A stretch of DNA of 64,000 nucleotides, from the NCBI GenBank assembly GCA_963798485.1, contig CAWCTR010000014.1, positions 224,001 to 288,000 on the forward strand. Direction: 5' to 3'. Below are positions 21,887 to 49,246 of this stretch, piece by piece. Position 1 is the stretch's first letter. Each line of letters opens with the position of its first letter. The notes under the pieces were generated by a model, which saw nothing but the letters and a program-made list of their open reading frames with translations, did not search any database and was not told the origin of the DNA. Both the position numbers and the translations under genes were made by a program. The DNA comes from an uncultured delta proteobacterium. Its GTDB lineage: Bacteria; Desulfobacterota; Desulfomonilia; UBA1062.

Positions 21887-22115
21887 GCTGGAAAACCGCA
21901 AAAATGCAGCGTGCACCAATACAGGGGTTGGCGTCGACAAACCGGACGTGTCGATATACCTGGGCTCCACATCTTGCTACGCTTAGCCCATCATGGCGGA
22001 TGAACCAAACGTCTAATCTTTCCGGGTTCATATAATGAATGAAATCATTAGAAAAATTTAATTCGTTTCTAATCTTCTTTTAATCATAATGCTGTATTGT
22101 AATCTTACCAAGATG

Positions 22116-22538
22116 ATGAAAAAAATTCTGATCATCCTATGCACCTTCGGGTTCATATCCTCTATCTGTCTAGCCGGACAGCCTGAATCGGCCCCCTCCA
22201 AGGAGGTACCGGCAAAGACCGGAGCGTCCAAGGAGATCAGAGGTAAGGTGGAGGGGGTAGTCCTTGAAGATCTGGCAAATGAGGTAAGGCCGAAGATCAC
22301 TATTATTACAGGGGATGGCCAGAAACACACCTTTGTCATACGACCGACCACAACTATCTATGATCCCGGGTGGAACCCCACGACATTGGATAAGATTACG
22401 AAAGGACAATTCGTGAGGATAAAATACAGGATTAATAAGGAAGGGTTCACAGTGGCCCTCTCCATCAAGCCTACCAAGATGGGTTCAGGCGCGGAGCATA
22501 TCTCGCAAAGTACAAATAAAGATGTGGAGCCAAAGTAA
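22116..22538 (+). CDS. Secreted beta-rich (OB-fold-like) hypothetical protein
   Basis: Signal peptide MKKILII...CLA; G.V..V and L..I.KGQ.VRIKY pattern. Confidence 0.7.
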   Translation: MKKILIILCTFGFISSICLAGQPESAPSKEVPAKTGASKEIRGKVEGVVLEDLANEVRPKITIITGDGQKHTFVIRPTTTIYDPGWNPTTLDKITKGQFVRIKYRINKEGFTVALSIKPTKMGSGAEHISQSTNKDVEPK

Positions 22539-22557
22539 TAATAAACTGCAAATGACG

Positions 22558-22842
22558 ATGAAAAGGATATTGATACTCTCCTCTCTCTTGGTGCTCAGCG
22601 CCATCGTATGCCTTGCAACACAAAATGCTGATCCTGCAATGAAACAACCAACTGCTCATCTGTATTATAAGACCTTCCAGCTCAATTATGTGAAAGGCAG
22701 TATTGAGGAAGTACCACTAACCGATCATGCTCCGGAAATTAGAACAACAAAATTAATTACACAAAATGAACATATTTACCTTGTTTCATTACGGTCATTT
22801 CTGCCACCCTTCACCTTGTATGCAAGGCCTCCCCCTGAATAA
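22558..22842 (+). CDS. 94-aa secreted protein ending RPPP; candidate arrest peptide, copy 1
   Basis: Signal peptide; C-terminus TLYARPPPE; gapless paralog at 47997. Confidence 0.75.
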   Translation: MKRILILSSLLVLSAIVCLATQNADPAMKQPTAHLYYKTFQLNYVKGSIEEVPLTDHAPEIRTTKLITQNEHIYLVSLRSFLPPFTLYARPPPE

Positions 22843-23012
22843 TACCTTTAGAAAGGTATTGATAGGGGATACGTCATATCAATATTGCTCCAACATTTAG
22901 TCATCTTGATTTTTAGAAGATACTATGCTGCATAATGCCATTGCGGCATTATTTCAGAGCAATAAAAAGCCCATGCTTGTACATAATACGAATAACACAG
23001 CGGAGGAATACC

Positions 23013-23558
23013 ATGAAGAGAATGTGGTTAAATATAATCATTATCCTGTTTGTCGGAATAGGGTTTGCAACCAGTGGTTGCGCAAAGAAGAATATAGTTG
23101 AGAAGACTGAAGAGATGAAGCCCCCTGTTGCACAGACTGCACCTAAGGCCCCGGCCCTTACCCGGCCGAAAGAAGAGGCAAAGGTTGAGACGTCAGCACT
23201 TACCGCAAATGAAATAAAGGCATTCGAAGACAAGGATCTCCATTTTGGCTTTGATAAGTTCGACCTCACATCAGAGGCTATGGAGATACTGAACCGGAAG
23301 GCTTCTTTCCTTAAGGCCGATACGAATGTAACAATCCGGATTGAGGGCAATTGTGATGAAAGAGGCACAACAGAGTATAACCTTGCCCTTGGGGATAGGA
23401 GGGCTGATTCCGCCCTGAACTATCTACTTGAGCAGGGAATTGCAAAAGAAAGGATATCCACCGTCAGCTACGGCAAAGAGAGACCTCTCGATCCGGGTCA
23501 TAATGAAAAGGCCTGGGCAAAAAACCGAAGAGACCATTTTGTTATTGTGAAGAAATAA
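23013..23558 (+). CDS. pal: Peptidoglycan-associated lipoprotein
   Basis: Lipobox TSGC, F.FD, IEGNCDERGT.EYNLALG.RRA, SYGKERP, KNRR. Confidence 0.95.
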   Translation: MKRMWLNIIIILFVGIGFATSGCAKKNIVEKTEEMKPPVAQTAPKAPALTRPKEEAKVETSALTANEIKAFEDKDLHFGFDKFDLTSEAMEILNRKASFLKADTNVTIRIEGNCDERGTTEYNLALGDRRADSALNYLLEQGIAKERISTVSYGKERPLDPGHNEKAWAKNRRDHFVIVKK

Positions 23559-31466: not shown

Positions 31467-32375
31467 TTACTCCATTCGGTGGCTCACCAGGGCGGCGAAT
31501 GCGCATGAGATCAGCCTTGCCCTGGGCGGGTCGGACCGGGATGTGAGGATGATCGGGACCTTTGTCCCTACGACGAAGCCGGCCATCTGCGCCCCGGCCA
31601 GATATTCAAGGTCCTTGCCCAGGATGTTGCCCGAAACCAGGTCCGGCACCACCAGGATGTCAACGTCGCCTGATACGGGGCTGTTGATCCCTTTGACCCT
31701 TGCCGACTCGGCTGAAATGGCATTGTCGAAGGCGAGCGGCCCATCCACGACGGCCCCTTCTATCTGCCCCCTGTCCGCCATCTTTGCCAGACATGCCGCA
31801 TCCATGGTGGAGGGGATGGACGGGTTGACGACCTCCACTGCCGACAGGGCGGCAACCTTCGGTTTTTCCACCCCCAGCAGACGGGCAATATCAACCGCAT
31901 TCTGCACGATGTGCATTTTGGTGGAGAGGTCCGGGCTGATGTTGATGGCGGCATCGGTAATGTACAGAATCTTGGGATAGGTCTTCAGGTCTGCCAGGAA
32001 CACATGGGATATGCGTTTTTTTCCCTGGAGGTGATGGGCGAGGATCGGGTGAAGAAATTCGTCCGTATGGATATGACCCTTCATCAGGGCCTTGACCTCA
32101 CCCTTTTCAAAGAGCTCTACGCCCTTCTCGGCCATTGCATCCTCAACCGGGGCATGGATAATACGGAATTGCCTTGTGCAGGTGATGGTCTTCAAAATAT
32201 TTCGAATACTGTTTTCATCCCCGATTAAAATGGGATCCACATAACCGGCTTCGGCTGCCTCGCATGCGCCTTCCAGCACATGCCGCTCATCCGCATCTAT
32301 GACGGCAATGGGCATGGCAGGAAGACCTTGGACAGCCTTAAGCATGTCCTCAAATGTGGCAAATTCAACGCTCAT
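31467..32375 (-). CDS. Phosphate acetyl/butyryltransferase
   Basis: LMKG, TDAAINI.P, DGPLAFDNAIS, LTSRSD. Confidence 0.9.
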   Translation of the reverse strand: MSVEFATFEDMLKAVQGLPAMPIAVIDADERHVLEGACEAAEAGYVDPILIGDENSIRNILKTITCTRQFRIIHAPVEDAMAEKGVELFEKGEVKALMKGHIHTDEFLHPILAHHLQGKKRISHVFLADLKTYPKILYITDAAINISPDLSTKMHIVQNAVDIARLLGVEKPKVAALSAVEVVNPSIPSTMDAACLAKMADRGQIEGAVVDGPLAFDNAISAESARVKGINSPVSGDVDILVVPDLVSGNILGKDLEYLAGAQMAGFVVGTKVPIILTSRSDPPRARLISCAFAALVSHRME

Positions 32376-33559
32376 GGTTTATCTCCCTGCCTGCCTTTTA
32401 AGAGTAGCGCCCGGGTATGCCGGGCAATCATCAGGTCCTCGTTGGTGGGAATAACCCGCACGGTGCAGTGACTATTGTCTCCAGAGATGATTCCTGCATC
32501 GGTATCGTTATTCATGGGGTCGATACGTATTCCAAGATAATCGAGGCCGTGGCAGATCATCCACCTTACCGGTGCGGCCCTTTCGCCTATACCTCCGGTG
32601 AACACCAGGGTATCCAGGCCGCCGAGGACGGCGGACAGTGCTCCGATATACTTGCGTGCCGTGTAGCAGAAAAGCTCTATAGCCTCTGTGGCATGAGGTT
32701 CCGTGGTGCGCTGATCCAGGAGGGTTTTCATATCGGAGCTGATCCCGGAGACCCCGATGAGCCCTGAACGCTGGTAGAGCAGCCTTTCAAGCTGGCGGGC
32801 ATCATAGCCTTTTTCGTCCATGAGGTAGAGCATGATGCCCGGATCGAGATCACCGCATCTCGTGCCCATCATGAGCCCCCCCAAGCCGGAGAACCCCATG
32901 GTGGTGTCCTGGGGGTGTCCGTCTTTCAGGGCTGCCATGCTGGCGCCGCTGCCAAGATGGGCAATGATGACCAGTCCTTTCGTATCGTTGCCCAGAGCAC
33001 TGACTATATATTCATAGGAAAGACCATGGAACCCGTAGCGGTGTATTCCCTCGTGCCGGAGGCTGCGAACTATCGGCAGCCACTGGGCCACCTCAGGTAT
33101 CCGCCGGTGAAAGGCGGTATCGAAGCAGACCACTTGGCTAAGTTCCGGGTAGTGCCCGGCTACTGCATCGATGCCTTTGATCTCGCTGGGCAGGTGCAAG
33201 GGGGCCAGGGGGATGAGGCCTCTCAGGGTGAGCATCAGTTCCGGCGTCACCACTTCGGGGGCCATGTGTTTCGGCCCTCCATGGACCAGCCTGTGTCCGA
33301 CCCCATCCGGAGACGGAAAATGTTGTTCCTCAATGGCTATGGTGAACATCGCCTTGACTGCCTCTTTGTGGTCGGAGAAATCTGCGTGACTGTCCACAAG
33401 GCGTTTACCCTGGCCATCCTTCAGCCAGAGCCAGCCGCCTAGCAGACCGATCCGTTCCACCGCCCCTTCGGCTATGAGTCTTTCGGTTGTATCGATAAGG
33501 TACATGGCAAACTTCATGGATGAAGAGCCGCTGTTGATGCAGAGAATATGATGTTTCAT
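32372..33559 (-). CDS. ackA: Acetate/propionate kinase
   Basis: INSGSSS.K, GHRLVHGG, FDTAFH, YGFHGLS, FTGGIGE, PTNE. Confidence 0.95.
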   Translation of the reverse strand: MKHHILCINSGSSSMKFAMYLIDTTERLIAEGAVERIGLLGGWLWLKDGQGKRLVDSHADFSDHKEAVKAMFTIAIEEQHFPSPDGVGHRLVHGGPKHMAPEVVTPELMLTLRGLIPLAPLHLPSEIKGIDAVAGHYPELSQVVCFDTAFHRRIPEVAQWLPIVRSLRHEGIHRYGFHGLSYEYIVSALGNDTKGLVIIAHLGSGASMAALKDGHPQDTTMGFSGLGGLMMGTRCGDLDPGIMLYLMDEKGYDARQLERLLYQRSGLIGVSGISSDMKTLLDQRTTEPHATEAIELFCYTARKYIGALSAVLGGLDTLVFTGGIGERAAPVRWMICHGLDYLGIRIDPMNNDTDAGIISGDNSHCTVRVIPTNEDLMIARHTRALLLKGRQGDKP

Positions 33560-33626: not shown

Positions 33627-33829
33627 TTATTCCTTGTTGTTCGTAATGACAAAGTGGTCTCTTCTGTTCTTTGCCCAGGCCTCTTCGTTATTCCCCGGGT
33701 CAAGGGGTTTTTCCTTCCCGTAGCTTATCGTAGAGATCCGTCCATCGGCTCTTTCTTTGCACAGCCGACCATAAGGAATCCAAACCCTACGGTCAACACG
33801 ACTAATGTTGCCAACCAAGACCTTTTCAT
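33627..33829 (-). pseudogene. pal: pal pseudogene with internal deletion
   Basis: Lipoprotein signal MKRSWL...VGCAKK joined out of frame to [16 protein letters not shown]...[10 protein letters not shown]. Confidence 0.8.
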
Positions 33830-33886: not shown

Positions 33887-34249
33887 TTATTGCGGAGGAA
33901 CAGACGTGTTGAATGTGTAAGAAACAACAACTCCATTTTTATCGAATCGTACTACGAGGTCTTTTGTGTATGTTCCGCTGAATAGCCAGTAGTTATACAT
34001 CCCATAAGTCCATGTCTGCCGGCCATCTTCGATTCCGACCCGCCATGGCGGTCCAAACATGGAACGGATCTCTTTCTGCGTAGTCACATTCATCTGTATC
34101 GTAGACACCTTCTCATCCGGGAAATCACGGCCGATAGTGGCGCAAGAAGCCATAAACAGCATAATCACAACTATAAAACACCAGAAGACCTCACGCAGGA
34201 AATTACCATTCCCCTTAGAATAAACAGACAATGAATGATAGTTATTCAT
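33887..34249 (-). CDS. SmpA/BamE-like lipoprotein
   Basis: Lipobox MASC, TT..EI...FGPP, WTY, L.V.FD. Confidence 0.7.
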   Translation of the reverse strand: MNNYHSLSVYSKGNGNFLREVFWCFIVVIMLFMASCATIGRDFPDEKVSTIQMNVTTQKEIRSMFGPPWRVGIEDGRQTWTYGMYNYWLFSGTYTKDLVVRFDKNGVVVSYTFNTSVPPQ

Positions 34250-47996: not shown

Positions 47997-48281
47997 ATGA
48001 AAAGGATATTGATAACTCTCAGTGTCCTTTTGCTGTTCTCTGCCGTATGCCTTTCATCTCAAGCCACAAAATCTGTAAAAGCAATGCCTTATGCAAACAC
48101 CGCTTACAAGGCCTCTCTCGTCAATAACATGAAAGGCAGCGTTGAGGAAGCTCCCTTAGCCATACTTGGTCCAGAAACCAGCGCTGTAATAATAATTGCA
48201 AAAAATGAACAGAGATACGTTGTGTCATCATGGTCAGCTCAACCACTATCTACCTTATATGCAAGACCACCCCCTTTCTAA
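47997..48281 (+). CDS. 94-aa secreted protein ending RPPP; candidate arrest peptide, copy 2
   Basis: Signal peptide; C-terminus TLYARPPPF; gapless paralog of the 22558 ORF. Confidence 0.75.
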   Translation: MKRILITLSVLLLFSAVCLSSQATKSVKAMPYANTAYKASLVNNMKGSVEEAPLAILGPETSAVIIIAKNEQRYVVSSWSAQPLSTLYARPPPF

Positions 48282-48466
48282 AATTACCTGAGATCAATCT
48301 TCAAGTACTGGATATCGGCATTATTCTCAGGTATTCAGTCATCAATAGCCTGAAGTCTGAAATGTAAAGTTACTACATTAGGCCATTGATGATCAGGGGG
48401 TTTATAACCAGGACAGTAATAGCCACCTTCATATGCATAAAATAAATACCTGAATGGAGGTTGCCC

Positions 48467-48904
48467 ATGAAAAATTCATGGCTATTTATACTTGTTTTCA
48501 TGGTTCTAGGTATAGAAGTGATTCTTCTGTATGGTGCTAAGAATATTGTTGATAAAGCAGATGAGGATAATACCTATATTCAACAAGTGGTCACACAACC
48601 AATCCTTTCCGCCCCAACAATAAAAGCAGATGTATCTGCTCCAAAGCAAAGCCTGGCAGATGGGACAGTGGCTCCAGGAACTAATGAAATCCATTTCGAT
48701 TCTGTCATGCCCTATCTCGAGCCTGATGTGCCGGATATATTGAATCCAAAGATGTTCTTCCTCAAGTCATCTCCTGATTTTAAAATTCAGGTCAAACAAA
48801 GTCCTGCCAGTAAAAATACTGGGGGAGAATACCCCTCACGTGGTGACCGGAGAGATAGGACGTACCATAACTATCTTGCTGAGTCGAGGGTTGAGAGAAA
48901 ATAA
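48467..48904 (+). CDS. Degenerate Pal/OmpA-C-like protein
   Basis: IHFD...L...IL..K..FLK...GDRR.....NYL aligns with Pal at 23013; lipobox Cys and C-terminal part lost. Confidence 0.65.
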   Translation: MKNSWLFILVFMVLGIEVILLYGAKNIVDKADEDNTYIQQVVTQPILSAPTIKADVSAPKQSLADGTVAPGTNEIHFDSVMPYLEPDVPDILNPKMFFLKSSPDFKIQVKQSPASKNTGGEYPSRGDRRDRTYHNYLAESRVERK

Positions 48905-48937
48905 CCCTTATCCATATCCTTCTTTCGAGGTGAAACC

Positions 48938-49246
48938 ATGATAGAAAATAATTCACAAGGTTTAAAAAGTCATCATATCCTCTCTACTTCATCAAATTTG
49001 CTGGGGATATGTTTTTTGATTTTCAATATAATAAGGGTATCAAAAATGCACGAAAAGACCTTGCTTGATACTATATGCTTGGTCCCAATGCTCCTGTTCA
49101 TGGCAGCGAGCATATTTTCATATGTTTCGATTCGTTCTTCGACAAATCAAGTTTCCTATGAACAGTGTGCGGATATGATATTCATTGGCGCTTTATGTTC
49201 TTTGTGCGTGATTACAATAGTGTCTGTTCTTGGGTTAGTCTATTAG
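48938..49246 (+). CDS. Small 3-TM membrane protein
   Basis: HILSTSSNLLGICF plus three hydrophobic segments. Confidence 0.7.
   Translation: MIENNSQGLKSHHILSTSSNLLGICFLIFNIIRVSKMHEKTLLDTICLVPMLLFMAASIFSYVSIRSSTNQVSYEQCADMIFIGALCSLCVITIVSVLGLVY

Follow-up and report, generated by a model that had tools for sequence, protein, structure and literature searches.

Short signal-bearing ORFs ending in RPPP as candidate stalling leaders of Pal-type genes in an uncultured Desulfomonilia bacterium

Why should a small exported protein end in Arg-Pro-Pro-Pro just before its stop codon, twice in the same stretch of DNA and each time upstream of a Pal-type lipoprotein gene or its derivative? The question is raised by 64,000 nucleotides from an uncultured delta proteobacterium (Desulfobacterota; Desulfomonilia; UBA1062; GenBank assembly GCA_963798485.1, contig CAWCTR010000014.1, positions 224,001 to 288,000 of the forward strand), hereafter the window, which hold two paralogous open reading frames (ORFs), ORF-A and ORF-B, of 94 residues each. 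A first-pass annotation of this DNA had read them as arrest peptides that control the next gene. Our analysis favours the reading that ORF-A and ORF-B are stalling leaders of the RxPP or polyproline type that act on the downstream Pal paralog, with a probability of about 45%. We prefer this reading because of the Sec-type N-terminus, the invariant RPPP, the lack of a predicted fold, the fixed spacing to the next gene and the published stalling at RPPP.

An invariant RPPP end in a family of short secreted proteins

The positions given for the two ORFs in the first-pass annotation (starts at 22558 and 47997) were right, and its hand count of 43/94 identities without gaps became 43/93 by BLASTP (ungapped, E 1e-25). 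Both proteins end in TLYARPPP followed by a single residue, E in ORF-A and F in ORF-B, and the stop codon. The terminal codons are GCA AGG CCT CCC CCT GAA TAA in ORF-A and GCA AGA CCA CCC CCT TTC TAA in ORF-B, with the synonymous differences that had been noticed earlier visible in both DNA copies. Both start with MKRILI; as read from the sequence, MKR is followed by 16–17 hydrophobic residues and CLA or CLS, and AlphaFold models residues 2–20 of ORF-A as a helix. The Sec-type signal peptide claimed for both ORFs is thus borne out by the sequence pattern and by the predicted helix.

Relatives of the two ORFs are few. A word-indexed search yielded P0002 as its sole relative, which is 70% identical, ends in FFARPPP and is represented by its protein sequence alone. 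A profile of three sequences was then used in a full HMMER scan of 1.84 billion representatives with E values up to 1e-3, and matched 14 proteins, namely the window's own and 13 relatives, none of the latter being named. Seven of the 14, the window's own included, are intact short proteins that all end in [YFS][AT]RPPP plus one residue. Two others, P0004 and P0005, are frameshifted B-type sequences (the type of ORF-B) without the motif, and two, P0014 and P0015, belong to a family of longer proteins described below. The large repetitive proteins P0009, P0012 and P0013 were removed as matches of composition or repeats.

In an alignment of 12 short-family sequences (30–73% identity to ORF-A; two rows 96% alike), the columns that are invariant number 8/94: I4, K46, G47, E51, R90, P91, P92 and P93. 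The four motif residues are accordingly present in all 12 members, each time with a single residue between them and the stop. A89 is kept in 11/12, and the last residue varies among E, F, G, L, R and A. The block of residues 89–94 reaches a mean top-residue frequency of 0.90, against 0.38–0.73 in all other 8-residue blocks. Among six DNA copies the third positions of the motif codons vary (AGG/AGA, CCT/CCA, CCC/CCT) while the residues stay constant, which argues for selection on the amino acids. Within the signal peptide, found in 12/12 sequences, K2, I4, L13, C18 and L19 hardly vary, if at all, and the segment VKGSxEE (residues 45–51), which contains the invariant K46, G47 and E51, forms a further conserved element. 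Genome-wide, RPPP occurs six times in ORFs of at least 150 aa, in an ORF set that includes spurious frames.

Comparison with known families gave little. ORF-A has no Pfam or NCBIfam match, and ORF-B has only a 13.5-bit chance Pfam match to another family; neither ORF showed sequence similarity to the SecM, ApdA or ApdP families in these two databases. A DUF2946 match and a CxxC or CxxxC metal motif are both absent from ORF-A and ORF-B, whose single Cys sits in the signal peptide. Comparison of the short ORF with a protein atlas produced no usable match.

Two database sequences have unusual structures. P0004 (129 aa) equals ORF-B over its first 70 residues and then continues in the +1 frame from a run of six A (48200..48215 in the window), a change that reflects a genuine inactivation in a close relative or else an error of the assembly. 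P0018 (244 aa) is a long paralog fused in frame to a B-type short ORF.

Origin from a barrel gene and linkage to Pal-type genes

The short-family profile also matches residues 1 to about 75–84 of secreted proteins of about 120–145 aa, including the product of the gene directly 5' of ORF-A. Aligned against 17 sequences of this long family, the short family gives an hhalign probability of 99.1% (E 1e-18), with short residues 1–81 placed on long residues 1–78; the signal peptide adds to the score, and the alignment continues through the mature part. AlphaFold predicts the long protein with a pLDDT of 94–97 over residues 40–120 and with five strands (39–49, 60–64, 70–82, 99–106 and 112–119). From input alignments of similar depth (17 rows for the long protein, 12 for the short one), ORF-A is given a mean pLDDT of 52.5, and its sole secondary structure is the signal-peptide helix. 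Given the hhalign match and the loss of the fold in the short form, the short ORF is a truncated copy of the neighbouring barrel gene; this copy breaks off within strand 3 and has acquired a new tail.

In a Foldseek search, the best solved small-protein match of the long protein was CusF (TM 0.68–0.70 normalised to CusF, E about 1e-3, about 20% identity). The likeness to the CusF-like OB-fold, a five-strand barrel of about 80 residues, belongs to the long paralog only and is a structural match alone, whereas the short ORF holds strands 1–3 only. The long protein has no Pfam match over the cut-off; a 149-aa ORF call gives a weak DUF5666 match (E 0.032), and the 140-aa form gives none. The long family has a conserved TTTIY motif and is multi-copy in the lineage, with at least three copies in the congeneric genome G013 and four in G003.

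The arrangement around the short ORFs recurs. The window's genome (G000) and two further genomes, G002 and G003, represent three species, and each contains one A-type and one B-type module with the gene order long paralog, short ORF, Pal or Pal-like gene. In all six modules the Pal or Pal-like gene lies on the same strand, 170–185 nt downstream of the short ORF. A 102-aa hydrophobic protein closes four of the six (G000_B, G002_A, G002_B and G003_B) and does not follow Pal in G000_A and G003_A. Five modules have an intact short ORF; in the sixth, G002_B, it retains codons ~54 to 94, with no start and the 5' half gone. The first-pass annotation had regarded homologs lacking both the motif and the linkage as telling against a leader; the motif is kept in 12/12 aligned members and the Pal-type linkage in 6/6 modules. 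The features of the two modules in the window are collected in Table 1.

Table 1. Features of the A and B modules in the window, with the basis of each assignment
Feature	Position	Strand	Basis or remark
Long paralog, ~140 aa, secreted five-strand beta-barrel protein	22116..22538	+	ORF and start of family HMM match
ORF-A, candidate stalling leader, 94 aa	22558..22842	+	Sec-type signal peptide, unstructured middle, ARPPP-E-stop
R90-P91-P92-P93 codons (AGG CCT CCC CCT), proposed stall site	22825..22836	+	Stall position inferred from RAPP peptides
Spacer from ORF-A to pal, 170 nt	22843..23012	+	pal Shine-Dalgarno GGAGG at 23002..23006
Pal-family lipoprotein gene, paralog without tolB linkage	23013..23558	+	TIGR02802, OmpA domain, lipobox Cys
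ORF-B, 94 aa, ORF-A paralog ending ARPPP-F-stop	47997..48281	+	RPPP codons 48264..48275
B-module spacer, 185 nt	48282..48466	+	
Pal-like derivative, truncated OmpA-like domain, without lipobox Cys	48467..48904	+	Relaxed selection
102-aa hydrophobic protein, last gene of B module	48938..49246	+	ORF; no Pfam match

About 19 nt separate the stop of the long paralog from the start of ORF-A, which has no clear Shine-Dalgarno sequence; an in-frame upstream ATG at 22522 offers an alternative start and would give 106 aa. The ATG of ORF-B is preceded by GGAG at 7 nt. Both modules lie in patches of low GC content, with 41.3% (22001..23000) and 40.3% (48001..49000) against 50.6% for the genome.

Full-length copies of the short ORF were found in 3/15 genomes of the genus (G000, G002 and G003) and in 3/122 genomes of the class, and among 401 genomes sampled from the phylum in G000 only. 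The short-ORF family is therefore narrow.

The first-pass annotation had placed both ORFs directly upstream of pal or a pal derivative. The placement held, at 170 and 185 nt, with the correction that this Pal is a paralog. The gene behind ORF-A scores 135.2 bits against TIGR02802 (cut-off 125.35), has an OmpA domain (E 1e-20) and carries a lipobox Cys as read from the sequence (GC-AKK). Several Pal-type genes are present in this genome, however. A TolB at G000:C30:31110-32318, which at 295.8 bits is below the family cut-off and by far the best match, is directly followed by the canonical Pal (G000:C30:32464-32973). As this tolB–pal pair is on another contig, the Pal of the window is an accessory paralog and not the tolB-linked pal. 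The Pal-like gene of the B module shares 29% identity with the window Pal (E 7e-13), has no lipobox Cys and gives no Pfam or NCBIfam match. A complex prediction of Pal residues 24–181 with ORF-A residues 23–94 returned a score of 0.01 (mark 0.32).

The window holds a further trace of Pal, at 33627..33818 on the minus strand, where a C-terminal remnant is 62% identical to Pal residues 126–179. It is flanked by a 120-aa lipoprotein-like ORF (33887..34249, minus strand) and a 395-aa ORF (32372..33559, minus strand). In the congeneric genome G006 an intact Pal lies between the homologs of these two flanking genes (locus L049), which identifies the remnant in G000 as a decayed copy, while the Pal behind the RPPP ORF stays intact.

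Selection on the module genes was estimated as dN/dS by the Nei–Gojobori method. The short ORF gives 0.26–0.75 among A-type orthologs and 0.51 for G000_B against G003_B, with values below 1 in 10/10 pairs, and the A-type Pal and the long paralog give 0.11–0.22 and 0.20–0.37, respectively. Outside its motif, the short ORF evolves fast compared with the adjacent Pal. The B-type Pal-like gene, with a dN/dS of 0.60–0.81, is decaying.

These results bear on the view that the short ORFs have no function and are what is left of a truncated duplicate, with a tail shared only through recent common descent. Truncation as their origin and the narrow distribution agree with it, as does the decay on the B side, where G002_B has lost its 5' half, P0004 and P0005 are frameshifted and the Pal-like gene shows the elevated dN/dS. 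A remnant, however, would hardly keep RPPP down to 30% identity despite synonymous change around it, nor a frame of 94 codons that is open in all five intact genomic copies, with seven database members of 94–138 aa. We consider this view very improbable.

A stronger alternative is that the short ORFs encode a real periplasmic peptide of about 72 aa in its mature form, which acts in the envelope alongside the barrel protein and the Pal paralog, any pause being incidental. The RPPP-x tail may in that case be a polyproline-type binding segment or a protease-resistant end of the mature peptide. The signal peptide in every aligned member, the dN/dS below 1 in every pair, the co-oriented and tight packing with two envelope genes, and a VKGSxEE segment that is more strongly conserved than the matching stretch of the long family all speak for such a peptide. 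It would, however, be a peptide without a predicted fold, which has kept only three of five strands and matches no known family; moreover, a last residue that is free while RPPP is fixed is unusual for a motif read via the free C-terminus. Weighing both sides, we regard the periplasmic peptide as possible but rather unlikely.

Published RPPP stalling and related leaders

The stalling-leader reading draws on published work on two kinds of proline-dependent arrest. For the RAPP-like peptides, mutagenesis of the RAP core found the Arg to be irreplaceable, and random-library screens led to RxPP with x being G, A, S or P (PMC12992588). In the same report, ApdP A132P, which creates an RPPP, gave 2.4 units in B. 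subtilis against 1.9 for the wild type, and intermediate values were obtained for ApdP A132P in E. coli and for ApdA A121P. EF-P does not release the ApdA and ApdP arrests in an assay that did not contain RPPP, and RAPP/RGPP motifs are described as concentrated close to the C-terminal ends of small secretory proteins that are encoded upstream of genes of many kinds (PMC12992588). For the XPPP motifs, stalling in vitro without EF-P was really strong only for RPPP (Starosta et al. 2014, PMC4176338), and RPPP was also the strongest XPPP staller in vivo when an efp deletion was compared with the wild type (PMC4176338). The query motifs of a published survey were RAPP, RGPP, RAGP, RAPG, HAPP and QAPP (PMC10987492). 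With x being Pro, the short family falls outside these queries and inside the RxPP set of the random libraries.

ORF-A and ORF-B resemble the RAPP-like peptides (ApdA, ApdP, ApcA, SecM with RAGP, the RQH family and the RAPP/RGPP upstream ORFs (uORFs) of Streptomyces) in being small ORFs with an N-terminal localisation signal, an invariant Arg-x-Pro-Pro a few codons before the stop, variable sequence N-terminal of the motif, and a same-strand gene directly downstream. They differ in having RPPP instead of RAPP, RGPP or RAGP, a swap that is only partly to nearly fully permissive in ApdA and ApdP (PMC12992588), and in preceding a Pal-type lipoprotein gene rather than a sec or yidC gene; stalling of the present ORFs is a prediction. 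The uA_LPPP group offers a related case, in which a leader ending in xPPP lies upstream of secA and stalls the ribosomes of B. subtilis in vivo, but not those of E. coli (PMC10987492). With the EF-P-dependent XPPP stalls the ORFs share the Arg and three Pro, the strongest XPPP context; those stalls are relieved by EF-P (PMC4176338), and the present genome encodes EF-P.

Two metal-related leaders are close in layout. CruR of Bordetella pertussis (Bp2923, DUF2946; PMC9426467) and CutF of Rhodobacter capsulatus (PMC9973294) are likewise exported, poorly structured uORF products with a C-terminal proline motif before the gene of an envelope protein. CruR also shares the long spacer, 162 nt between cruR and bfrG against 170–185 nt here, and its Rho-dependent model has a counterpart in a stretch richer in C than in G (C>G) at the 3' end of the present ORFs (PMC9426467). 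In contrast to CruR and CutF, the short ORFs lack a DUF2946 match and a CxxC or CxxxC metal motif. In CutF a stem-loop hides the Shine-Dalgarno sequence (PMC9973294), whereas no consistent stem-loop was found in the six copies here.

The first-pass annotation knew of no described arrest peptide for pal, and a search of the literature agrees, as it joined no such peptide to pal; the main text of PMC12992588 contains none of the words 'OmpA', 'peptidoglycan' and 'lipoprotein'.

The strength of RPPP as a pause also suits an explanation that needs no effect on pal, in which the motif is a translational pause serving the co-translational export of the ORF itself. As read from the sequence, the signal peptide of a 94-aa protein is fully exposed only at the last codons, and RPPP is the strongest XPPP pause (PMC4176338). 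The long paralogs, however, have the same kind of signal peptide and need no such motif, and the constant distance of 170–185 nt to a Pal-type gene would be left unexplained. We therefore judge a pause for the ORF's own export to be improbable.

From a putative stall to the Pal-type gene

In the stalling-leader reading, a tandem duplicate of the barrel gene would have been truncated at strand 3 and would have gained the LYARPPP-x-stop tail. During translation of this tail, the ribosome would stall or pause two codons ahead of the stop codon, with the P-site tRNA carrying A-R-P-P and the A site holding Pro-tRNA, such that P92 occupies the P site and P93 the A site. In this position the ribosome would shield the stop codon together with the C-rich 3' end of the ORF, and the signal peptide, about 70 residues from the peptidyl-transferase center, would already be outside the ribosome. 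Sec engagement or EF-P activity may set the duration of the stall. Finally, the stall would set the expression of the Pal-type gene 170–185 nt downstream, and it might do so in one of two ways: Rho would be denied access to the C-rich stretch, as for CruR or TnaC, or the RNA of the spacer would be refolded, as for SecM or CutF. We hold only tentatively the fuller proposal that a new arrest-peptide family has emerged from a truncated OB-fold gene and that its RPPP couples Sec export or EF-P status to the synthesis of an accessory Pal.

Several features of the RNA and of the genome bear on the last step. A terminator-like site was not found on the same strand between ORF-A and pal, and Rfam gave only sub-threshold chance matches on the spacer. 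Over the region from −65 to +15 around the stop, a stretch with C>G (C 24–32%, G 8–15%) is present in 5/5 modules, and Rho is encoded in the genome, as is EF-P (efp 260.8 bits against a cut-off of 185.8). Spacer identity between G000_A and G002_A is 0.53–0.61, compared with a synonymous-site identity of about 0.33–0.46, which indicates that the spacer is under mild constraint only. By partition-function folding, the Shine-Dalgarno sequence of pal has an unpaired probability of at most 0.08 in 6/6 copies, and RNAalifold arranges the three A-type copies in a multibranch fold closed by CCUCC, from the Pro codons, pairing with the GGAGG of pal. The C-rich stretch at the stop does no more than fit the Rho model. 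Between the two forms of coupling, we rank the Rho-type model slightly above a hidden ribosome-binding site.

A number of observations weigh against the stalling-leader reading. The CCUCC–GGAGG pairing exists in only two of the three A-type copies, one copy having CCACC; in the three B-type copies the partner that RNAalifold gives the Shine-Dalgarno sequence is a local ACCUUC some 25 nt upstream, unlike in the A type; and compensatory pairs amount to 1/53 in A and 5/50 in B. When the footprint of a stalled ribosome was imposed, the accessibility of the pal Shine-Dalgarno sequence did not rise in the six copies. The C/G ratio of the spacer proper is about 1, and the signal-peptide codons are covered by a second C>G stretch. 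A weak sigma-70-like site (9/12) is present in the spacer at 22859..22886. A plain PPP pause may be short-lived, because EF-P is encoded. The position of VKGSxEE, 41–47 residues from the stall site and thus at or past the tunnel exit, hints at a role of this segment outside the ribosome. The module counts cover G000, G002 and G003, and the genomic contexts of the five most divergent members (P0006–P0008, P0010 and P0011) stand outside them; searches with the single proteins P0006 and P0008 matched nothing in metagenome or genome contigs. Moreover, four loci in three other congeneric species (G006 with two, G008 and G013 with one each) carry orthologs of the Pal (58–65% identity) that are preceded by different genes and not by a short ORF of this kind. 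In related genomes, where the first-pass annotation had proposed to look for RPPP uORFs before pal, such ORFs are present in the modules of G002 and G003 but not at these four loci.

A SecM-type masking of the pal Shine-Dalgarno sequence by the Pro codons was dropped as a candidate on account of the CCACC copy, the different B-type partner and the lack of stall-dependent opening. The arrest-leader interpretation first proposed for the two ORFs is partly supported: it remains the best single explanation, with the layout, the conserved motif, the truncation and the Pal-type linkage established, and with the stall, export force as its signal, pal as its target and the coupling putative.

If the stalling-leader reading is true, ORF-A and ORF-B would be the first stalling leaders for a peptidoglycan-binding lipoprotein, and RPPP would be a natural arrest core. 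They would also provide a worked example of how a leader originates, namely from the gene of a folded periplasmic protein by tandem duplication and a cut at the third strand. The target classes that the main text of PMC12992588 gives for RAPP-like leaders, namely sec genes, metal uptake and oxidative folding, would extend to an envelope-anchoring Pal paralog. What is new in detail is the family with its RPPP core, its Pal-type neighbour and its origin by truncation, the leader class itself being already known. Since systems of this kind are well described (SecM, Apd, CruR, CutF and the surveys of 2024–2025), the finding would refine the picture without changing it.

A second ORF of similar anatomy exists in the same genome. 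At G000:C18:48428-48691 on the minus strand, an 87-aa ORF combines a signal peptide, a His/Cys-rich stretch and an end made of RAPP, one residue and the stop. A 473-aa ORF of the outer-membrane type follows 226 nt 3' on the same strand, and after it come three ORFs that, named by eye, are like a metal-uptake ABC system. The 87-aa ORF has no Pfam match and looks like a metal-sensing leader of the CruR/CutF type. As a second ORF with a signal peptide and a RAPP-x-stop end, it is counted as support for the leader reading of ORF-A and ORF-B.

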